From a virus (taxonomy: Duplodnaviria; Heunggongvirae; Uroviricota; Caudoviricetes), in the IMG/VR virus record IMGVR_UViG_2537562195_000008: a stretch of 37,183 bases of DNA; one strand, written 5' to 3'. The position numbers were made by a program, and so were the translations under genes. The notes beneath the pieces are model-generated. The model made no database searches. It was not told the DNA's origin and saw nothing but the letters and a program-made list of their open reading frames with translations. This document shows positions 1,137 through 12,766 of the stretch, piece after piece (the stretch's first letter is position 1; every line of letters starts with the position of its first letter).

Positions 1137-2813
1137 CTAAGCAACATGCAGTTCATCGTTGGCGGAAGTTGCTGCTTTGCGCTCTTGCTCAATCGCCAGT
1201 GACTCTCTATATTCTTTCGCTTCCGCAAACATTGTCCATTGTGCGTTGATGTTCATATCTTCAATAACAGACTTAATTTCTTTAATATTTACGTTGAAAA
1301 ACTCTTTTCGTGAGTTAATTTTATTGACCTGTTTTTCGTTGAAGACTTTATGCAGATGATTTTCTAATGATGGTGCATCATCACTATAAATCATCGCATG
1401 AACATCGAACGAAAAAGGAACACTAGCATCACCGAGTTCACGAACACGATCAAGTGGTTCAAGGCGGCGTGTCATTCCAATTTTATATACATCTTCGCCA
1501 AATGAGCCAATATTACTAATTATATAAACGTGGCCTGATCTAGTTTGTTGAGCCATAGAAATAGCTCGTTGGTTTTTAGCTTCAGCTTCTTCATATTTTA
1601 ACTGTAGTTCAGCTATTTTTTGCTCTAAAGCTAAGCGTTGTTCTTCATTTGCAAGCATAAGCTCTTTTGTTGCTTTATTTATAGCTTGCTGAATAGCTTT
1701 CTCTTCTTTTTCAGCTTCTTTTATCGCTTTTTCATACTCCCTACGAGCTCTTTCCTCTTCACGAAGTTGTTCTTTAATCCTTCTTTGCTCTTCTTTTTCT
1801 TCGAGCATAATTTCATTAACTGCAACTCCCCATTTTAGCTCGTTGAGTCGAGCTTGAAGATAGATGTCACTTATTTTTGCGGACCTAAAGGCAGAACCAT
1901 TGTAATTTACAAGTTGAAACGCATCTTTTATCTCTTGGGAAAGTTTTCCAAAATTGTTGTGTTTGACTTTTGATAAAATACTGTCAACTCTTCCATTGAA
2001 GGCATCTAAAACAAAGTTGATAGCAGTATTACGCCTGTTTTGTTCAACATAATCACACGAAGCAGCTTTATTAGTTTTTATTAATGATTTTGTTAACTCC
2101 CTGGCTTTTTGTAATTCCTTACCTGCATCTGTAAACTCATAATTTTCTGCCAATTCATCGAGAACGCTACGGTTAGGGATGATCCATTCATCACCATAAC
2201 CTTCAATTTTATTTTTCATTGATTTGGCAACTGCTTCATATTTTTCTGCAAACTCTTTAGCTTCATATGCTGAACCAGCAATCTCTTTTGCTCTTTCTTC
2301 TGCATCGGAAATAATTTTCACTGCATTGTCATTAGCATTTGAGATCAGCTCATTTGCTTTACTATTGGCATTATCAAGACGTTCTTTAGCTTTCAGGCGT
2401 GCATCGCGAGCGTCTTTAGTAATTGCTATAGCTTCGCTATTAGCGTTGCTTATTTTTATCTGAGCTTGATAATTTGCTTCGTTTACTGTCTTAGCAGCCT
2501 TTATTTGGGCTTCTTCTATTTTTTGCCTGGCTATTGAGTCTGCATTTTTTATCTTATTCTCTGCTTCCATCACTGCGCTGTGCAATTCTACGTATTGCCA
2601 TAATGGCGCAGCTCGTCCTTCAAGCTCTGATAGATCTCGTACAGTCTGTGCTAATTCTTCTTGATTTTCTTTCAGTTGGTTGGAAAGGGCTATGTTGTTA
2701 GCTGTCAAGGTATTTATAGCCGCTTTATGTTTTTTGCTTTGCTTAAATAATATTACAGCTAGAATGGGGGCGAGAAATGCTAATAAGAATATAACGATGG
2801 AAAATGAATTCAT
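1137..2813 (-). CDS. Membrane-anchored coiled-coil protein with DUF4041-like region and C-terminal T5orf172/MUG113 (GIY-YIG-like) domain; cargo gene
   Basis: 558 aa; N-terminal hydrophobic helix (IVIFLLAFLAPILAVILF); long E/K/A/Q-rich coiled coil; C-terminus GHVYIISNIGSFGEDVYKIGMTRRLEPLDRVRELGDASVPFSFDVHAMIYSDD...LHKVF matches the T5orf172 signature from memory; AT-rich relative to flanks. Confidence 0.7.
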   Translation of the reverse strand: MNSFSIVIFLLAFLAPILAVILFKQSKKHKAAINTLTANNIALSNQLKENQEELAQTVRDLSELEGRAAPLWQYVELHSAVMEAENKIKNADSIARQKIEEAQIKAAKTVNEANYQAQIKISNANSEAIAITKDARDARLKAKERLDNANSKANELISNANDNAVKIISDAEERAKEIAGSAYEAKEFAEKYEAVAKSMKNKIEGYGDEWIIPNRSVLDELAENYEFTDAGKELQKARELTKSLIKTNKAASCDYVEQNRRNTAINFVLDAFNGRVDSILSKVKHNNFGKLSQEIKDAFQLVNYNGSAFRSAKISDIYLQARLNELKWGVAVNEIMLEEKEEQRRIKEQLREEERARREYEKAIKEAEKEEKAIQQAINKATKELMLANEEQRLALEQKIAELQLKYEEAEAKNQRAISMAQQTRSGHVYIISNIGSFGEDVYKIGMTRRLEPLDRVRELGDASVPFSFDVHAMIYSDDAPSLENHLHKVFNEKQVNKINSRKEFFNVNIKEIKSVIEDMNINAQWTMFAEAKEYRESLAIEQERKAATSANDELHVA

Positions 2814-2833: not shown

Positions 2834-3430
2834 TTAATTTGAAACTATTGTACTTCTTATACAAGCAACTACTTCAATATCAGAAAATGCACATTCAAAG
2901 CTATTCTCTGTACTTGTAATTTTAATCATACCTTTTGGAAGCTTTGTGATTTTTCGAATGGAATAGGTTCCGTCGATGTTGATTAACCAGTGCCCATCAA
3001 GTACTTCAGAAAATTTTTGATCACAAATGTATGTGACGAGCCCATCCTGAATAACAATTGGTGATGAAAGATTTGCAGGAAGAAATGATGAATCGAAGAC
3101 ATATGAACCATCTTCAATCATTTTGCCTGCGGTAAGGCGAAACTTGGCAAGCTCTTCTGTAGCTGCTGTCAGCGAGCTTTGCTTAAGGCCTTGCCCGGTG
3201 GTTAACCATTTCAGTGAGGTTCCTGTTTCAAGAGCACATTGGATTATCCAGTCTGCAGGAAACGTATCCCGCAAATACCTGTTCGCCAGAGTGCTTTTTG
3301 ATACTTCCAAGTGATCAGCTAAAGCCTGTCGTGTCGTAAAGCCATAAGCTTCGACTAATCGCTCAATCGCAGCCTTACCACCTTTATTGGGATTTATTTT
3401 GATCTCATTTGGGTACTTTGATGTTGACAT
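2834..3430 (-). CDS. cI: Immunity repressor CI (186-type: N-terminal HTH, C-terminal oligomerisation domain)
   Basis: 198 aa; resembles 186 CI as recalled (…EAYGF…LA..L.VS.STLANRY…CALETG..L.WL.TG…); divergent from the early lytic operon. Confidence 0.8.
   Translation of the reverse strand: MSTSKYPNEIKINPNKGGKAAIERLVEAYGFTTRQALADHLEVSKSTLANRYLRDTFPADWIIQCALETGTSLKWLTTGQGLKQSSLTAATEELAKFRLTAGKMIEDGSYVFDSSFLPANLSSPIVIQDGLVTYICDQKFSEVLDGHWLINIDGTYSIRKITKLPKGMIKITSTENSFECAFSDIEVVACIRSTIVSN
3406..3418. promoter_or_regulatory. Putative operator repeat copy 1 (CATTTGGGTACTT) in the cI/apl switch region
   Basis: Exact 13-bp direct repeat with 3465..3477, about 59 bp apart, flanking the cI start and the divergent pR region. 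Confidence 0.4.
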
Positions 3431-3464
3431 ATCTCTTTTGCGATCCTAGTATCAATTTTGTCCC

Positions 3465-3477
3465 CATTTGGGTACTT
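3465..3477. promoter_or_regulatory. Putative operator repeat copy 2 (CATTTGGGTACTT) between cI and apl
   Basis: Second exact copy of the 13-mer, inside the approx. 95-bp divergent promoter region. Confidence 0.4.
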
Positions 3478-3525
3478 GTCACGATTACTACAGGCTCACC
3501 ACAAGCCAATAGGAGATGTTGCATC

Positions 3526-3747
3526 ATGACCCCTAACATTTCAATAACTCTGAATACGCCACATGTCACAATTGAGCGTTATAGCGAACTTACTGGTCTT
3601 TCTATCGACACCATCAACGATATGCTGGCTGATGGTCGCATCCCTCGCCATCGCCTTCGGAAAGACAAGAAAAGAGAAAAGGTAATGATCAACCTTGCTG
3701 CTCTTACCGTTGATGCACTTACTGATTGCAATGTTGTATTCAACTAG
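3526..3747 (+). CDS. apl: Apl/Cox-like excisionase and transcriptional regulator (small HTH protein)
   Basis: 73-aa ORF from an internal ATG preceded by AGGAG; first gene of the rightward early operon opposite cI; basic C-terminal region ([12 protein letters not shown]). Confidence 0.6.
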
Positions 3748-4296: not shown

Positions 4297-4497
4297 ATGC
4301 TGACGAAAGAACCATCATTTGCATCGCTGCTGGTAAAACAAAGCCCGGCAATGCACTACGGTCACGGCTGGATCATGGGGGAGGATGGTAAACGCTGGCA
4401 TCCGTGCCGTTCACAGGATGAATTGCTGGCAGAACTATCTACGAAAAAACGGGGGAACAAATGGCTATTGAAGGCGCTGCGGCAACTATTCCATTAA
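4297..4497 (+). CDS. fil: Small early protein at the 186 fil position (filamentation/cell-division inhibitor-like)
   Basis: 66 aa from internal ATG of ORF 4240..4497; immediately downstream of cII as in 186. Confidence 0.45.
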   Translation: MLTKEPSFASLLVKQSPAMHYGHGWIMGEDGKRWHPCRSQDELLAELSTKKRGNKWLLKALRQLFH

Positions 4498-5330: not shown

Positions 5331-6184
5331 GCACCATCTTGAAATGGGCGGGAAATAAAACCGCCGTAATGTCCGAACTGAAAAAACATCTTCCTGCTGG
5401 TCCGCGACTAGTTGAACCTTTCGCGGGTTCCTGTGCTGTGATGATGGAGACGGATTATCCCTGCTATCTGGTTGCGGATATTAATCCTGATTTAATCAAC
5501 CTCTATAAAAAGGTTGCCGCTGATTGTGAATCGTTTATATCTCGCGCCAAAGTTTTATTTGAGATCGCAAACAGGGAGGTGGCTTATTACAACATAAGGC
5601 AGGAGTTTAATTACTCAACTGAAATTACTGATTTCATGAAAGCGGTATATTTCCTGTATCTCAATCGTCACGGTTACCGTGGGTTATGTCGCTATAACAA
5701 GAGCGGGCATTTCAACATTCCCTACGGTAATTATAAAAATCCGTATTTCCCTGAAAAAGAAATTCGCGCTTTTGCAGAAAAAGCCCAGCGAGCAACGTTT
5801 ATCTGCGCCAGCTTTGATGAAACGCTGGCGATGTTGAAGGCGGGGGATGTGGTGTATTGCGATCCGCCTTATGACGGTACGTTTTCCGGCTATCACGCTG
5901 ACGGCTTTACTGAAGATGACCAGTATCACCTGGCATCCGTTCTTGAACATCGGTCATCAGAAGGACATCCGGTCATTGTTTCTAACAGTGACACATCCCT
6001 GATCCGTTCGCTGTATCGCAATTTTACTCACCACTATATCAAGGTAAAACGCAGCATCGGCGTAGCAGCTGGTGAGAGTAAATCAGCAACAGAAATCATT
6101 GCTGTTTCCGGGCCGCGCTGCTGGGTGGGATTTGATTATTCGCGTGGCGTGGATAGTTCTGCCGTGTACGGAGTACGTGCATGA
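5327..6184 (+). CDS. dam: DNA adenine methyltransferase (Dam-like, orphan N6-adenine MTase)
   Basis: Internal ATG overlapping upstream stop (ATGA); N-terminal KWAGNK…EPFAGSCAV (AdoMet-binding) and DPPY catalytic motif (VYCDPPYDG). Confidence 0.85.
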
Positions 6185-8595
6185 GCCATGCCGATATGAG
6201 CAACTGCTGCGGCTTTAACGAGGCTGCCGCATCGTTCTCATGGAACAGCCCGAAAAAGGCCATTAACCCTTATCTGGACCCGGCGGAAGTTGCGCCGGTT
6301 TCTGCGCTTTCAAACCTGATCACTCTGTACGCTGCCGATAACGAGCAGGAACAACTGCGCCGCGAGGCACTGAGTGATCAGGTCTGGGAGCGTTATTTCT
6401 TTAATGAATCCCGTGATCCTGTCCAACGCGAAATAGAGCAGGATAAGCTCATTAGCCGGGCAAAGTTGGCGCATGAGCAGCAGCGTTTTAACCCGGACAT
6501 GGTCATTCTGGCAGACGTCAGCGCCCAGCCCTCCCATATCAGCAAGCCGCTGATGCAACGTATTGAATACTTCAGCAGCCTGGGCAGGCCAAAGGCTTAT
6601 TCCCGCTATTTACGTGAGACGATTAAGCCATGTCTGGAACGACTGGAGCATGTACGCGACAGCCAGCTATCTGCATCTTTTCGTTTTATGGCAAGCCATG
6701 TAGGGCTGGACGGCCTGCTGATTCTGCCTGAAATGAGTCAGGATCAGGTGAAACGCCTGTCTACCCTTGTCGCTGCGCATATGAGCATGTGCCTTGATGC
6801 AGCTTGTGGTGATTTGTATGCCACCGATGACGTTAAGCCAGAAGAAATCCGCAAGACATGGGAAAAGGTGGCAGCGGAAACCCTGCGTCTGGATGTCATC
6901 CCGCCTGCGTTTGAGCAACTCCGTCGGAAAAGAAACCGCCGTAAACCCGTGCCCTATGAACTCATTCCGGGTTCGCTGGCGCGTATGTTGTGCGCCGACT
7001 GGTGGTACCGGAAATTATGGAAAATGCGTTGCGAATGGCGGGAAGAGCAGTTGCGTGCTGTCTGCCTGGTCAGCAAAAAAGCATCTCCCTATGTCAGCTA
7101 TGAAGCCGTGATGCATAAACGTGAGCAGCGCCGCAAGTCACTGGAGTTTTTCCGTTCTCATGAACTGGTGAACGAAGAGGGCGACACGCTGGATATGGAA
7201 GACGTGGTAAACGCCAGCAGCAGCAACCCGGCGCACCGCCGCAATGAGATGATGGCCTGTGTTAAAGGTCTGGAGCTTATCGCGGAAATGCGCGGTGACT
7301 GCGCCGTTTTCTACACCATTACCTGTCCGTCACGTTTCCATTCCACGCTCAATAACGGCAGACCAAACCCAACCTGGACAAATGCGACGGTAAGACAAAG
7401 CAGCGATTATCTGGTCGGCATGTTTGCTGCATTTCGTAAGGCGATGCACAAAGCCGGGTTGCGCTGGTATGGCGTGCGGGTGGCTGAGCCGCATCATGAC
7501 GGTACAGTTCACTGGCACCTGTTGTGTTTCATGCGCAAAAAAGACCGCCGCGCCATTACTGCATTGTTGCGTAAGTTTGCCATCCGTGAAGACCGCGAGG
7601 AACTGGGTAATAACACTGGTCCACGCTTTAAATCTGAGCTGATAAACCCGCGCAAAGGAACGCCGACAAGCTACATCGCGAAATACATCAGTAAGAACAT
7701 TGACGGGCGTGGTCTGGCTGGCGAGATCAGCAAGGAAACGGGTAAATCCCTGCGTGATAACGCTGAATACGTTAATGCCTGGGCGTCTCTGCATCGTGTT
7801 CAGCAATTCCGCTTCTTTGGTATTCCGGGACGTCAGGCTTACCGTGAACTTCGCTTGCTGGCTGGTCAGGCGGCAAGGCAACAGGGTGACAAAAAAGCAG
7901 GTGCGCCGGTACTGGATAACCCGCGTCTTGATGCCATTCTGGCTGCTGCTGATGCTGGTTGTTTTGCCACCTACATCATGAAGCAGGGCGGCGTACTGGT
8001 TCCCCGCAAATATCACCTCATCAGAACCGCTTATGAAATCAACGAAGAGCCAACCGCCTATGGCGATCACGGTATTCGTATTTATGGCATCTGGTCACCC
8101 ATTGCAGAGGGCAAGATCTGCACTCATGCAGTGAAGTGGAAAATGGTTCGTAAGGCCGTTGACGTTCAGGAGGCGGCAGCCGACCAGGGCGCTTGCGCCC
8201 CTTGGACTCGTGGCAATAACTGTCCCCTTGCTGAAAATTTGTACCAACAAGGGAAAGACAAATCAGCTGATGGGGGCTCCAGAACGGACATTACCCGCAT
8301 GGATGACAAGGAATTGCACGATTACCTGCACAGTATGAGCAAAAAAGATCGCCGGGAGCTGGCAGCAAGGTTGCGCCTGGTGAAACCGAAACGGCGTAAA
8401 GACTACAAACAGCGAATTACAGATCATCAGCATCAGCAGCTCGTCTATGAACTGAAGTCCAGAGGATTTGATGGCAGCGAGAAAGAAGTCGATTTGCTCC
8501 TTCGCGGTGGCAGTATTCCGTCAGGAGCAGGCTTGCGTATCTTCTATCGGAACCAGCGTTTGCGGGAAGATGATAAGTGGCGGAACCTGTATTAA
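6181..8595 (+). CDS. A: Replication initiation endonuclease A (rolling-circle HUH nickase, P2 gpA family)
   Basis: 804 aa; HUH-type motif [10 protein letters not shown] and downstream tyrosine-containing segment ([10 protein letters not shown]); start overlaps dam stop (ATGA). Confidence 0.85.
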
Positions 8596-8689
8596 TTACG
8601 CGGGTTAACAATTCGTGCTCTTAATAATACCAGGCATATCAGGCTGATGAACGTAAAAAAACGTTTTACATCAGTAAGATTATTATATA

Positions 8690-8705
8690 CTGTAAATATA
8701 AACAG
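8690..8705. promoter_or_regulatory. LexA (SOS) box CTGTAAATATAAACAG
   Basis: Perfect CTGT-N8-ACAG palindromic half-sites with AT-rich spacer, about 45 bp upstream of the tum-like ORF. Confidence 0.75.
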
Positions 8706-8748
8706 TGGTTGTGTATACAGTATTTCTTGTGGTGTCATAGGAGGAAAG

Positions 8749-8937
8749 ATGCAGGACTATTTTTTGGAGTCTTTGAAGCTCCAGCGCATTGATTTTTTTC
8801 TTAAGCTTGTAGCGGCTAGTGAGTGTAGTGATGAAGAGAAGGGGCTAGCTTTGCAGTGGGTTTCTGAACTAACAGATGAACTCATGGCAAAAATCAGAAC
8901 CCACGAATACAACCGCTCAATGGATGTCATCAGTTGA
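8749..8937 (+). CDS. Tum-like antirepressor N-terminal part (SOS-controlled)
   Basis: 62-aa ORF from internal ATG directly after GGAGGAAAG; downstream of LexA box; by 186 analogy the LexA-controlled gene is the antirepressor tum. Confidence 0.45.
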   Translation: MQDYFLESLKLQRIDFFLKLVAASECSDEEKGLALQWVSELTDELMAKIRTHEYNRSMDVIS

Positions 8938-8947
8938 GGTGACTTTT

Positions 8948-9181
8948 ATGCGCATTGAAATAATGATCGATAAAGAGCAGAAGATTAGCCAGTCTATCCT
9001 GGACGCCCTTGAATCCGAGCTTTACCGCAATCTGCGCCCCCTGTATCCCAAAACGGTAATTCGTATCCGCAAAGGTAGCTCTAACGGTGTGGAACTGACC
9101 GGACTGCAACTGGACGAAGAAAGAAAACAAGTGATGAAAATTATGCAGAAAGTGTGGGAAGACGACAGCTGGCTGCATTAA
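8948..9181 (+). CDS. DinI-like protein (Tum C-terminal/DinI family)
   Basis: 77 aa from internal ATG of ORF 8876..9181; MRIEIMIDKEQKISQSILDALESEL…VIRIRKGSSNGVELTG…MQKVWEDDSW resembles the DinI fold sequence. Confidence 0.7.
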   Translation: MRIEIMIDKEQKISQSILDALESELYRNLRPLYPKTVIRIRKGSSNGVELTGLQLDEERKQVMKIMQKVWEDDSWLH

Positions 9182-9187
9182 GAAACG

Positions 9188-9222
9188 TTGCTGGCGTCTG
9201 AACTTGCTTCTGGCGCCAGCAA
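9188..9222. other. Inverted repeat (TTGCTGGCG … CGCCAGCAA) after the DinI-like gene; possible terminator
   Basis: 9-bp perfect inverted repeat containing palindrome CTGGCGCCAG; no obvious T-tract, so the terminator assignment is weak. Confidence 0.3.
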
Positions 9223-9384
9223 GGTTGAACAACGAGCCGTGCGAGGCGTTAGCTCTGTGGTGCATGTCTATGCCGCATGAGATCGCATGATCGTTTGAGG
9301 ATCGTTTTTGCTAAGGCCCGCCAGAACTGTCGGGCTTTTGCGTAGATCATGCAGGTGCATGAAAACCACTACATAAAGCGGGCA

Positions 9385-9403
9385 GGCGTGGCGGGGATAC
9401 GAG
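9385..9403. other. cos: Putative cos (cohesive-end) site, P2/186-like GGCGTGGCGGGGA…
   Basis: GGCGTGGCGGGGATACGAG resembles the P2/186 19-nt cohesive end as recalled (GGCG(A/T)GGCGGGGAAAGCA…); lies in a non-coding gap between the early region and the portal-side island. Confidence 0.5.
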
Positions 9404-9577
9404 CGCGCGCTGATAGGGTAATCGTCAAAACAGGCATCAGCTAGGTTGAGTTGTAGCGGTGCTTAAGTTTGCTCGTTGTTTGATAGAGCTTAATGTATGT
9501 AATTGCCTACAGCTGTGGTTATCTATTAACATGTAAGGATAAGGTCACTTGCTCGCTGCCATTAGAAGAGGAACTGG

Positions 9578-10048
9578 ATGTCTATCGAGGAAAAATTTTT
9601 TAGTGATATCGATTTAAAAGATCCGTTTTTTAACAGCCTAAGAGCTGATTATGAAGGATTTGATGTTTGGTTTCTCTCAAAAGGTAAAAATAAGGCGTTT
9701 GTATCACGTAATGAATTAGGTGAAATCGATGGTTTTCTCTATTTGAAAATAGAAGATGAAGAGTTGAGTGATATGACTCCAACGTTTCCAAAGATGAAGC
9801 GAGTAAAGCTTGGCACATTTAAAATCGATGCTCATGGAACCAAACTTGGAGAGCGTTTTATTAGAATTATGTTTCAATTTGCTATGAGAAACAAACTAAA
9901 AGAAGTATATGTTACTATATTTGATAAGCATTCAGGGTTAATTCGCTTATTAACTAAATATGGTTTTGTTTTAAAGGCGAGGAAAAATCTTTCTACGATT
10001 AATGGGCAAGAAGGTGTATACTTTAAAAACTTGGTATGGAAGGAGTAA
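9578..10048 (+). CDS. Hypothetical protein, possibly GNAT-fold N-acyltransferase-like; island gene 1
   Basis: 156 aa; C-terminal half (…KLGTFKIDAHGTKLGERFIRIMFQFA…EVYVTIFDKHSGLIRLLTKYGFVL) resembles GNAT motifs A/B; AT-rich. Confidence 0.5.
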   Translation: MSIEEKFFSDIDLKDPFFNSLRADYEGFDVWFLSKGKNKAFVSRNELGEIDGFLYLKIEDEELSDMTPTFPKMKRVKLGTFKIDAHGTKLGERFIRIMFQFAMRNKLKEVYVTIFDKHSGLIRLLTKYGFVLKARKNLSTINGQEGVYFKNLVWKE

Positions 10049-10051
10049 AAA

Positions 10052-10633
10052 ATGAGCTATGCTAATTATCCCTTAGTCAAATTGCAGGGGAGAAATTATT
10101 TATTAAGTATTTATCCTGCATGGCATACACGTCTTTTCCCTGAGTCAAAACTCCACAATGAGAGTGCTGGTATCATCGCTGATATATCACATACCAACAG
10201 TATTGAAAAAGTATACTTAACAAAAATGCATGGGGTAGCCAGCCTAAAGCCTGGAGATAATTTGCTTATTTATCGTACTTCAGATGGACAAGGTCCAGCT
10301 CGGTTTAGATCTGTTGCAACTTCAGTGTGTGTGGTTCAGGAAATTAAAGATATTCACGATTTCTTAACTTATGAGGAATTTAAGAATTACTGTGAACCTT
10401 ATAGCGTTTTTGATGAAGATGAGTTACAGCTTCTATATATGAAAAAAAATTATCCGATAATTATACGGTTTACTTATAATTTCCCTTTGGAAAAAAGAGT
10501 TATTCGTGATGAAATCATGAATATTACAGGTTATACCAATAGTGATTATTGGGGTTTTTTACCACTAACTGATTCAGCATTTAAGCAGATTGTCTTACAG
10601 GGAGGTGTTGATGAAAGTTTTATTATCGATTAA
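10052..10633 (+). CDS. Hypothetical protein; island gene 2
   Basis: 193-aa ORF tightly linked (4-nt gap) to the upstream gene; no motif recognised; AT-rich. Confidence 0.55.
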   Translation: MSYANYPLVKLQGRNYLLSIYPAWHTRLFPESKLHNESAGIIADISHTNSIEKVYLTKMHGVASLKPGDNLLIYRTSDGQGPARFRSVATSVCVVQEIKDIHDFLTYEEFKNYCEPYSVFDEDELQLLYMKKNYPIIIRFTYNFPLEKRVIRDEIMNITGYTNSDYWGFLPLTDSAFKQIVLQGGVDESFIID

Positions 10634-10980
10634 GCCAGAGTATGCAGAGAGTATACTTTCTGGTAAAAAAATATGAGTTTCGGAAAAATATTTTTAGAAA
10701 TAAAAATGTTGATACGATAGTTATTTACGCAACGATGCCGGTTGGCAAAGTAATAGGTGAATTTAAAGTAGGAGATATTCTTGCTCTATCCCCTTCAGAA
10801 TTGTGGGATAAAACGAAAGCTCATGCAGGAATTACACATTCTTTTTTTAAAGATTATTTCCACCAAAGAGAAAAGGCTTTTGCTATTTCCATCAAAAGCC
10901 CTAAAAGATATAAATTCCCTGTCGACTTAAATGAGTTGATTCCCGGCGGCGTCGCCCCACAGTCTTATCGTTATTTATAA
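10611..10980 (+). pseudogene. ASCH/PUA-like domain protein interrupted by a frameshift at an A7 tract; island gene 3
   Basis: ATG at 10611 encodes MKVLLSIKPEYAESILSGKK then hits TGA; the listed ORF 10642..10980 continues in another frame with …YEFRKN…IVIYATMPVGKVIGEFKVGDIL…AFAISIKSPKRYKFPVDL…; together they form a typical ASCH domain; the frames meet at poly-A 10665..10671. Confidence 0.5.
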
Positions 10981-11520
10981 TGTTGTCTGGGCATGTTTCT
11001 TAACCATGCCCAGTTTTTCTAGGGCAATAGATAAATCGTTTGTTGTTGGGGATTCTAAGATAATTAATGGTACATTGATTTTATTTGTAACATATTTTGC
11101 GTTTTCTCTTTCAGCTTCCATCAGCTTATTTAAATCATAAGTAATATCACTCCCATCTCGTTTCATTATTCGTTCTCTAATTGTATCGGGAGACTCCTCA
11201 ACTAAAATTACTCCATCTAGCCCCATTTCCTCAAATACTTCTTGCTTGAGAACTTCAATATCTCCATTTTTATTTATTAAGGTAAAATGACCATCCAATA
11301 AAATATTGGATACCTTTGACTTTAATGCATTAAGTGCCGTAAGTAATATTGATTGGTTTTTATCAGGTGTGGCCGTTAACTTACTGTTATCAAATTTAAT
11401 ATTAGAATTATTTTTTATAAGTTCGCTTGCGCTTACATGAGTTACCCCGAAATCATCTTTTGCAAATGAACACAAGTAACCTTTGCCTACACCATGAACA
11501 CCTGCTATGAAAATTAACAT
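10975..11520 (-). CDS. P-loop NTPase, nucleotide/nucleoside kinase-like; island gene 4
   Basis: 181 aa; Walker A GVHGVGKG at the N-terminus, hhhhD Walker B-like ILLDGHF; size and layout like small adenylate/dNMP kinase-like ATPases; RBS GGAGG upstream. Confidence 0.6.
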   Translation of the reverse strand: MLIFIAGVHGVGKGYLCSFAKDDFGVTHVSASELIKNNSNIKFDNSKLTATPDKNQSILLTALNALKSKVSNILLDGHFTLINKNGDIEVLKQEVFEEMGLDGVILVEESPDTIRERIMKRDGSDITYDLNKLMEAERENAKYVTNKINVPLIILESPTTNDLSIALEKLGMVKKHAQTTL

Positions 11521-11585
11521 AGTATTACCTCCGTTTATTTATTTATGTTAGAATGTTATAGCCTTAGCATAGTAGAGGATAGAGC

Positions 11586-11963
11586 ATGAAGTTTCAAGCT
11601 ATATCGATTTTGACTCCAGCGGTAGAAAATATTATAAATGGTTCTAAATCTATCGAAATACGGTCGTGGTATCCTGAAACGATACCATTAAAAAACGTCA
11701 TTCTTGTTCAGAATGATAAATATCTTAAAAATCAAAGCGATATAGATCATGGGGTGGCTATGGCTATTGTCGATTTTGTTTCAGTTAGAAATTGGTCATA
11801 TGAGGATTACTTAAAACAAAACCAAGAAACAACTCTTAATAAGCCTTGGTCTCCAGGTTATTATGTGTGGGAAATTAAAAATGTTAGAATTTTAAAAAAA
11901 TCTATTCCTTGTGTGGCGAGGAAAGGTATTTATACAATAGATTTAAATATGGATTATATATAA
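11586..11963 (+). CDS. ASCH/PUA-like domain protein; island gene 5
   Basis: 125 aa; …SKSIEIRSW… and C-terminal …YVWEIKNVRILKKSIPCVARKGIYTIDL match the ASCH pattern (Y-x-W-x-L…P…kG.qgi) from memory. Confidence 0.6.
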   Translation: MKFQAISILTPAVENIINGSKSIEIRSWYPETIPLKNVILVQNDKYLKNQSDIDHGVAMAIVDFVSVRNWSYEDYLKQNQETTLNKPWSPGYYVWEIKNVRILKKSIPCVARKGIYTIDLNMDYI

Positions 11964-11974
11964 GGTATTGTGAG

Positions 11975-12766
11975 ATGTGTGGTGCCATTCTTCGAAATAT
12001 TAAGCGTTATGCCATTATTTATTCACTGTTGTTTTTGGCTTTTATTTTAATGCTGATAGTGTTTGTTAGCTATGTTTGTAAATTTGGAATGTATTCATGG
12101 AGTGATTCCGTAGAGAAATGGGGACAGTTTGGCGATTATATTGGTGGTGTACTGAATCCTGCTCTGGCCTTTATCTCTATCATGCTTGTTTGTTTCACAC
12201 TATATTCTACATCTAGGCAGTCATCTATTCAGTCATTCGAGTCTGTGTTATTTGAGTTACTAAGATTTCATAAAGATAACTTATCAGAAATTAAAACAAC
12301 GTATTCAGATGGAAAAGTGTATGTAGGACGGGAGGCTCTTTCATTATACATTACCGAAGTGAAGTTTAACCTACTTAATATTGTGGATGATTCACTTCCT
12401 TTGGATGAAAGGTTAGAGCTTTCAGTTAATATGGTTTATCTGGAAGGTGACAATTTTGCGAATGTGGGACATTATTTCAGGAATATTTACCATATTTTTA
12501 AACATATCAATGACTCTAACTATTTGACTGAGAAAGAAAAAACCAAGTATGCGAAATTAGTTAGAGCACAAATATCTTCTATAGAATCTGGCGCGATGCT
12601 ATTAAATGGTTTTTCATCGGTAGGAAAGCCTGCCAAGAAATTTATTGAAAAATATTCTCTCCTTCAGGGGTTTAGTTTAAGTAAGGAATTCAAGCAGCAA
12701 TTACATGATTTAGGTGCCTTAAAATTATACGATGACGTTGCTTATGAGGATAAAAAAGGGCATTAA
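11975..12766 (+). CDS. Membrane protein with two N-terminal TM helices and a cytoplasmic domain (candidate effector); island gene 6
   Basis: Internal ATG of ORF 11909..12766; hydrophobic helices IIYSLLFLAFILMLIVFVSYV and IGGVLNPALAFISIMLVCFTLY; stop overlaps the convergent portal gene stop. Confidence 0.55.
   Translation: MCGAILRNIKRYAIIYSLLFLAFILMLIVFVSYVCKFGMYSWSDSVEKWGQFGDYIGGVLNPALAFISIMLVCFTLYSTSRQSSIQSFESVLFELLRFHKDNLSEIKTTYSDGKVYVGREALSLYITEVKFNLLNIVDDSLPLDERLELSVNMVYLEGDNFANVGHYFRNIYHIFKHINDSNYLTEKEKTKYAKLVRAQISSIESGAMLLNGFSSVGKPAKKFIEKYSLLQGFSLSKEFKQQLHDLGALKLYDDVAYEDKKGH

Follow-up and report, generated by a model that had tools for sequence, protein, structure and literature searches.

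Organization of the module within the prophage

The window, which is the whole stretch of 37,183 nucleotides that was analysed, holds a complete 186/Fels-2-like prophage. The host flank carries E. coli ybjL-ybjM-grxA, and the prophage is integrated next to ybjL. The genes around the module are listed in their order along the window.

1–1053: int
after int and before cI: a PD-Lambda-1-like gene
2834–3430, minus strand: cI, a 186-type immunity repressor (Pfam Phage_CI_repr 8e-32, Phage_CI_C 4e-27) and the presumed target of TumA
after cI and before gene A: cII, a DksA-like zinc-finger gene and dam
6181–8595, upstream of the SOS module: gene A, a P2/186 gpA-type replicase of 804 aa
after the SOS module: cargo genes, followed by portal, terminase, head, lysis and tail genes and ogr

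Two small genes, tumA (ORF1) and tumB (ORF2), follow the replicase gene, together with a predicted SOS promoter and operator, a conserved 3´ element and a putative cos end.

8665–8670, plus strand: −35 hexamer TTTACA of the SOS promoter, the equivalent of 186 p95, assigned by sequence reading and by analogy to the annotated 186 p95
8686–8693, plus strand: −10 region within LexA box 1, read either as TATACT (8686–8691, 15-nt spacer) or as TACTGT (8688–8693, 17-nt spacer)
8688–8707, plus strand: predicted LexA (SOS) box 1, TACTGTAAATATAAACAGTG, core CTG-N10-CAG at 8690–8705, consensus match 17/20
8703–8722, plus strand: predicted LexA box 2, CAGTGGTTGTGTATACAGTA, core GTG-N10-CAG at 8705–8720, with a 1-nt overlap with box 1, found by pattern search
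8749–8937, plus strand: tumA, a 62-aa antirepressor homologue (N-terminal Tum domain) with the SD sequence GGAGGA at 8740–8745
8948–9181, plus strand: tumB, a 77-aa DinI-family protein with the SD sequence GAGGTGA at 8936–8942, which overlaps the tumA stop codon
9184–9252, plus strand: conserved 3´ element, comprising a covarying hairpin (9184–9226) and an invariant flank, AAGGTTGAACAACGAGC...GCGAGGCGTTAG (9221–9252)
9385–9403, plus strand: putative cos cohesive end, placed by alignment of the 186 and PSP3 genome ends

The predicted LexA operator

A CTGT-N8-ACAG box had been proposed upstream of ORF1 in an earlier, sequence-only reading of this DNA, and the motif is present at 8690–8705 (CTGTAAATATAAACAG) as its sole match in the window. 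The bare 8-base motif is not significant by itself: 0.37 matches are expected per window, and at least one occurs in 31 of 100 shuffles. When the 20-nt LexA consensus is searched with up to three mismatches, TACTGTAAATATAAACAGTG is the only match in the window, and 0.00 matches are expected by chance. The two-box pattern CTG-N10-CAGTG-N10-CAG occupies 8690–8720, where 0.03 occurrences are expected per window. The second box, the core of which shares a single nucleotide with the first, is absent from the earlier reading.

The −35 hexamer TTTACA is kept in all Fels-2-type homologues (alignment A1), and the annotated −10 of p95 in the 186 record is likewise a TACTGT within the LexA site. A strict sigma-70 consensus scan did not call the promoter, so the assignment rests on the analogy with 186 p95.

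By sequence, the operator at 8690–8720 is a colicin-type pair of overlapping SOS boxes, which are predicted LexA sites. Colicin operators of this double-box form are bound by two LexA dimers, which results in very tight repression (PMC2994835). The ColE1 cea promoter (L013:5063-5093) has the same architecture as the window operator, with CTG-N10-CAG and GTG-N10-CAG cores overlapping by 1 nt, and the pPCP1 pst (pesticin) promoter aligns with the window operator at 84.8% over 46 nt, covering both boxes. Box 2 of ColE1 is identical to box 2 of Fels-2, from which that of the window differs by three substitutions in the central spacer. The colicin and pesticin operators drive a bacteriocin, whereas the window operator precedes a predicted prophage antirepressor gene, and the sequences flanking the operators are unrelated.

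In every Fels-2-type phage or locus examined, the LexA site lies where it does in the window and has the double-box architecture. The same holds for 20 of 33 loci that were compared across different Enterobacterales species. In contrast to the window, 186 and PSP3 each have a single LexA box.

Relationship of tumA and tumB to 186 Tum

The coordinates proposed for the 62-aa ORF1 are correct: translation starts at ATG 8749 behind GGAGGA and stops at 8935–8937. The TumA protein shares 98.4% identity with Fels-2 STM2728 and with RE-2010 and is 100% identical to proteins of many Klebsiella and E. coli Peduoviridae. A single residue separates TumA from its Fels-2 counterpart, and the same is true of TumB. 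A 96-aa reading of ORF1 from a start at 8647 was rejected, as this start codon lies 5´ of the promoter −35 and the added N-terminal part is not conserved among homologues. The protein is often annotated at 96 aa, reading through the operator. The longer ORF1 entries in the databases are N-terminal miscalls through the operator or junk from poor assemblies.

ORF1 has no family in Pfam or NCBIfam, and a sequence-profile search of the PDB found nothing. The AlphaFold model of TumA is a two-helix hairpin (helices 2–23 and 28–61, pLDDT 87.9), in which Cys26, a nearly invariant residue among the homologues, sits in the turn. With this model, Foldseek found hairpins of a generic kind and no others, and none of them reached E <=0.001. 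In the databases the 62-aa family is named 'hypothetical' or carries the mislabel 'levan regulatory protein', and the PHROGs of ORF1 are labelled 'unknown function'.

BLASTP does not align ORF1 directly with 186 Tum, and a profile is needed to see the homology. The profile of 32 diverse ORF1 homologues matches 186 Tum residues 5–48 with 35.2 bits (E 5e-13, single comparison), and hhalign of the ORF1 profile with 186 Tum gives a probability of 95% and P 2.9e-8. 186 Tum matches the PHROG of ORF1, phrog_698 (2.4e-5), as well as the bridging family phrog_8554, while ORF1 matches phrog_1993, the PHROG of PSP3 TumA (0.0022). In tblastn, full-length 186 Tum (residues 1–145) aligns colinearly through the tumA, stop codon and tumB of Yersinia phage MLG42 with E 6e-19; the two MLG42 genes share one frame.

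The assignment of ORF2 as a DinI-like gene of 77 codons is borne out: from ATG 8948 to its end at 9181, its product scores 80.4 bits against Pfam DinI PF06183 (cut-off 24.2, E 1.3e-22) and matches the E. coli DinI structure 1GHH with E 3.6e-6. Against NCBIfam equivalog NF007893, which represents chromosomal E. coli DinI, ORF2 reaches 42 bits and stays below the cut-off of 111. By these scores, ORF2 is classed as a phage paralogue of the TumB type and not as host dinI. The sequence-only reading had given the C-terminal half of 186 Tum as DinI-like, in agreement with the 41% identity between ORF2 and Tum residues 71–145 (E 9e-25). The profile, PHROG and tblastn evidence shows that ORF1 is homologous to the N-terminal (antirepressor) half of 186 Tum, of which ORF2 matches the C-terminal half.

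The layout of 186 resembles that of the window in several respects. In both, the module follows gene A (the window replicase at 6181–8595) and lies near cos (~9385 in the window), and the LexA box overlaps the promoter −10. The two differ in that Tum (146 aa) is fused in one ORF in 186, whereas tumA and tumB are separate in the window, and only 186 has orf97 after tum in the operon. The 186 record also gives an internal GTG start, from which the DinI-like part is made by itself, and the truncated Tum products are annotated 'modulates SOS induction'. The fused Tum is confined to the 186-like clade, with 28 records at >=90% identity, and the two-gene layout is the common state.

The closest known system is Fels-2, in which STM2728 and STM2726.1 are the same two genes (98–100% protein identity) with the same 10-nt junction, promoter and double SOS box. 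The window differs from it by one residue in each protein, by the three substitutions in the central spacer of box 2, by a CI of another immunity type and by its downstream cargo genes. SopEPhi, RE-2010 and many Klebsiella and E. coli Peduoviridae carry the same gene pair as Fels-2. PSP3 has, like the window, a two-gene tum split under a LexA box, with an antirepressor gene upstream and a DinI homologue downstream, and in its GenBank record the two are called tumA ('UV induction of prophage') and tumB. PSP3 TumB is closely similar to window TumB. PSP3 TumA, a member of the 186-like subfamily (phrog_1993), shows only weak similarity to window TumA (hhalign P 0.002). In PSP3, the two genes are in the same frame, with the stop codon and 3 nt between them.

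The tum genes of Fels-2 and PSP3 have been described as split in two by a stop codon (PMC3121763, citing Bunny, Liu and Roth 2002), and the upstream gene of PSP3 is the antirepressor according to a personal communication cited second-hand in the same paper (PMC3121763). According to the title of Bunny et al. 2002, it is Fels-2 that makes a lexA null mutation lethal. A comparable pairing occurs in the Salmonella Gifsy-1/2/3 dinI-gfoA/gftA operons, which are LexA-controlled and encode a small antirepressor and a DinI homologue as separate genes (PMC3121763). These operons differ from the window in their reversed order (dinI first), in their unrelated antirepressor and repressor families and in belonging to lambdoid rather than P2-like phages.

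The tumA-tumB junction

The two ORFs had been described as overlapping. The genes themselves do not overlap: the tumA stop TGA at 8935–8937 is followed by a 10-nt spacer, GGTGACTTTT, and then by ATG 8948. The apparent overlap at 8876–8937 exists only because the ORF2 frame happens to stay open upstream, as far as ATG 8876, which gives a mechanical ORF of 101 aa. This open extension spans 25, 14, 4, 22, 14 and 1 codons among the homologues, and the sequences are unrelated.

The junctions of homologous pairs vary in spacing, frame and stop codon.

Window and Fels-2: spacer 10 nt, frame offset +1, stop TGA
SopEPhi and Klebsiella ST437phi4.1: spacer 11 nt, frame offset 2, stop TAA
Yersinia MLG42: spacer 12 nt, frame offset 0, stop TAG
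Klebsiella ST13phi12.1: spacer 13 nt, frame offset 1, stop TAG
PSP3: spacer 3 nt, frame offset 0, stop TAG

An identical 10-nt spacer is shared by the window, Fels-2, Klebsiella ST11-OXA245phi3.1 and E. coli phage 813R9. Across the homologues, the spacer measures 3, 9, 10, 11, 12 or 13 nt, and each possible frame relation is seen; among the 17 species loci with an intact pair, spacers range over 9–12 nt and the frame offsets 0, 1 and 2 occur 5, 4 and 8 times, respectively. A stop codon, an SD-like purine run and an ATG are present at each junction compared. No fusion of ORF1 with a DinI domain was found among 66 representatives clustered at 50% identity or among the 120 closest proteins. A hairpin at the junction (8926–8943) that would sequester the tumB SD sequence recurs in some homologues, and it was left out of the argument because its fold z-scores are only −1.7 to +0.75.

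The sequence-only reading had allowed for two separate genes, for a single tum made by frameshifting and for a tum disrupted by mutation. A programmed +1 frameshift within 8873–8937 would yield a single 186-like fused Tum protein, such as 186 itself makes. The ORF2 frame is open upstream to 8873, which gives a 65-nt overlap with ORF1, and a run of five A residues (GCA AAA ATC, 8889–8893) could in principle permit +1 re-pairing of tRNA-Lys. However, this run is followed by neither a rare codon nor a stop codon, no stimulator is present, and the proposed scan of the overlap for slippery motifs found neither an X XXY YYZ heptamer nor a CUU-UGA-type site. The comparative evidence is also unfavourable, as the frame relation of ORF1 and ORF2 is not conserved among intact homologues, the upstream extension is as short as 1 codon in one of them, fusions are missing from both the representatives and the closest proteins, and ORF2 has its own SD sequence and ATG in every homologue. 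We assign frameshifting next to no probability.

A tum broken by mutation, with the loss of SOS inducibility, would account for a coding region that is interrupted relative to 186, and truly decayed tumB genes do occur at other loci, through nonsense (L025), frameshift (L039 and L052) or deletion (L047). In the window, however, each ORF is exactly as long as its counterpart in 66 phage genomes, Fels-2, SopEPhi and RE-2010 among them. The promoter, the operator and both SD sequences are conserved, each protein differs from that of Fels-2 by a single residue, and 21% of complete E. coli genomes share the layout. A pseudogene is thus a very improbable reading. The variable spacers and frame offsets, together with the lack of any fusion in the lineage, effectively exclude both programmed frameshifting and a disrupted tum.

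Of the proposed readings, it is two separate genes that agrees with the homologues, which consistently show two genes of these sizes; the sequence-only reading had itself named this observation as one that would speak against a split gene. An alignment with 186 Tum had also been suggested to see whether Tum spans both ORFs. It does so in the alignment with the MLG42 pair, and the homologues in the lineage of the window are two genes and not one. What survives of the original proposal is an SOS module behind the replicase gene that is related to Tum, has a LexA box and includes a DinI-like second gene; the split by frameshift or by a disrupting mutation does not.

Distribution of the module and loss of tumB

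ORF1 homologues occur in 66 phage records, and the two genes are separate in every annotated record inspected. The module is found in 1125 of 5426 complete E. coli genomes, for which PGAP annotates a 'hypothetical protein' and a 'DinI-like family protein' in 12 of the 12 records listed. Among the 33 species loci, tumA is intact in 32, while tumB is intact in 17, decayed in 5 (by nonsense, frameshift or deletion) and absent from 10. ESSI-2-like phages and ENT90 have a tumA-type gene without a DinI gene. The retention of tumA where tumB is often lost or decayed fits a role of tumA as the essential inducer.

CI repressors and the specificity of TumA

Klebsiella phage KP12 has a CI with 98% identity to that of the window and a TumA with 100% identity, so that the exact TumA and CI pair of the window recurs in KP12. 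Compared with the CI of RE-2010, a close relative of Fels-2, the window CI is only ~44% identical; it is therefore only the co-occurrence of TumA and CI in KP12 that argues for a functional pairing of the two in the window. Phages with identical TumA have CIs that are only 42–50% identical overall and represent at least four CI immunity types. The N-terminal domains of these CIs are 61–70% identical with long invariant stretches, whereas the C-terminal domains are 31–34% identical. The N-terminal domain of 186 CI is 37% identical. This pattern suggests that TumA may recognise a conserved surface of the CI N-terminal domain, maybe across immunity types. That the Fels-2-type TumA is a broad-specificity antirepressor is a tentative proposal, which we regard as possible and rather less than evenly probable.

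The same pattern can be read differently. An identical TumA next to CIs that share only 42–50% identity is unusual for a specific repressor-antirepressor pair, and this, like the database names of the 62-aa protein, would fit a small SOS-induced protein with a role other than antirepression, in which case induction would proceed by another route. The profile homology to the N-terminal region of 186 Tum is, however, colinear and significant, and the genomic position, the LexA control and the 186-type CI partner are all as in 186. The conserved N-terminal domains of the CIs offer a target surface despite the overall divergence, and ORF1 is kept intact at 32 of the 33 loci, even where tumB has been lost. 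A different role for ORF1 appears unlikely, and we retain its assignment as the antirepressor homologue TumA.

The conserved 3´ element and cos

The hairpin at 9184–9226 folds with a dG of −26.2 kcal/mol (z −2.7). In an alignment of 26 sequences (A3), 92% of the cells are paired and 9 pairs are changed on both sides, and the covariation score is 0.417. Shuffles score 0.197, with none of 500 as high as the element, and slid controls <=0.11. The element has no U-tract, and a search of 8400–9700 against Rfam gave no match. It directly follows tumA where tumB is absent, follows orf97 in 186 and occurs twice in PSP3. The operon probably ends, on its 3´ side, with this element at 9184–9252. A GC hairpin with a T-run near 9316–9345 is another possible end of the SOS transcript.

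When the linear genomes of 186 and PSP3 are compared with the window, the alignment of their right ends runs to 9384, which places the cos cut after this position. The cohesive end is presumably 19 nt long (9385–9403), a length that we take by analogy from P2. In many loci, cargo genes are inserted between the 3´ element and the cos block.

Discussion

On the strength of its homologies and of its conserved operator, and with both genes intact, we identify the module at 8690–9181, with high confidence, as the Fels-2/PSP3-type "split tum" of a 186-like E. coli prophage. The split-tum layout is already known, and the window holds a near-exact copy of the tumA/tumB arrangement of Fels-2; new biology is not required to account for it.

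A working model can be drawn from the sequence and from related systems. In an undamaged cell, LexA dimers would occupy the two overlapping SOS boxes (8688–8722) and cover the −10 region and the transcription start; for this repression step we draw on the sequence and on the colicin precedent. DNA damage would activate RecA, which would trigger the self-cleavage of LexA and allow the promoter to fire. One mRNA would then give two separate proteins, TumA and TumB, for which neither frameshifting nor read-through is needed. By homology to 186, TumA is expected to bind the 186-type CI (2834–3430) non-covalently and block its binding to the operator, so that the lytic promoter would be derepressed. 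TumB, which would start from its own SD sequence 10 nt past the tumA stop, is probably translationally coupled to tumA. Judging from DinI and from the truncated Tum products that 186 makes, TumB may modulate the activity of the RecA filament and thereby tune the timing of induction, which would make it an accessory and not the inducer.

The practical outcome is modest. As the SOS-induction module is intact on sequence grounds, the prophage is expected to be inducible by DNA damage, like Fels-2. There is also a gap in database annotation, where the profile evidence allows the TumA family to be called a Tum-type antirepressor. If TumA does recognise a surface that is shared among CIs, the SOS induction of one prophage could spread in trans to heteroimmune Fels-2-like prophages, and, were TumA of such broad specificity, this shared trigger would be held at a high threshold of damage by its double LexA operator of the colicin type.

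Double SOS operator and the genes that it precedes

In the window, LexA box 2 (8703–8722) shares one base with LexA box 1 (8688–8707), and the pair makes up a double SOS operator of the colicin and pesticin type. Phages 186 and PSP3 lack such a double operator. Box 2 of Fels-2 is identical to box 2 of ColE1 cea. Many database entries for ORF1 (tumA) homologues, including P0005, P0007 and P0008, use an upstream start and call a protein of 84–109 aa, which translates through the promoter and the LexA operator (window 8647–8937); some carry the name 'levan regulatory protein'. Both the overlong calls and the name appear to be annotation errors.

The DinI-family gene tumB is a pseudogene in several species, by nonsense, frameshift or deletion (loci L025, L039, L052, L047 and L044), and is missing from 10 of the 33 Enterobacterales loci, while tumA is still intact. 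The record of phage 500465-1 contains indels in both genes, which look like sequencing errors.

A conserved hairpin between the SOS operon and cos

Downstream of the SOS operon lies a hairpin element with strong covariation; after the hairpin comes the invariant motif AAGGTTGAACAACGAGC...GCGAGGCGTTAG.

Window 9184–9252: covarying hairpin and invariant motif
186 (L004) 4343–4414: same element
PSP3 (L012) 3054–3125 and 3459–3530: same element, two copies
Window 9257–9413: conserved cos block, cut after 9384, cohesive end about 9385–9403

Conservation of the element extends from Pantoea to Salmonella; its duplicated copies in PSP3 flank a cargo gene. Neither a U-tract nor an Rfam family was found for the window copy. 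In the window prophage the cargo genes (9578–12766) sit between cos and the portal gene; in many relatives, other inserted cargo instead separates the hairpin element from cos.

Candidate defence genes and other cargo

9578–10048 and 10052–10633: adjacent same-frame ORFs separated by one in-frame stop codon
10642–10980: PDC-M11B (E 4e-38)
10975–12766: further cargo genes, namely an AAA_17 kinase-like gene (minus strand), an ORF with weak similarity to ASCH, and a match to Pfam putAbiC (1.2e-18) that is a putative AbiC-like abortive-infection protein
1137–2813, minus strand: 558-aa DUF4041 and T5orf172/MUG113 protein, matching PADLOC PD-Lambda-1 (E 1.5e-119)

Of the paired ORFs that precede PDC-M11B, the first corresponds to the N-terminal part of PDC-M11A, a PADLOC candidate defence protein (E 1e-58), and the second to its C-terminal part (E 6e-69). 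The pair may be a single defence gene split by a nonsense mutation, or a variant in which two genes are the natural state. The PD-Lambda-1-like gene is inserted between int and cI.

TumA and divergent CI repressors

Phages with 100% identical TumA encode CI repressors that are only 42–50% identical (window cI, 2834–3430, against the comparison phages L016–L020). In the same comparison, the likeness lies mostly in the N-terminal DNA-binding domain (61–70%, versus 31–34% in the C-terminal domain). Because identical TumA accompanies divergent CIs that are most alike in the N-terminal domain, these sequences hint that TumA may be a broad-specificity antirepressor.
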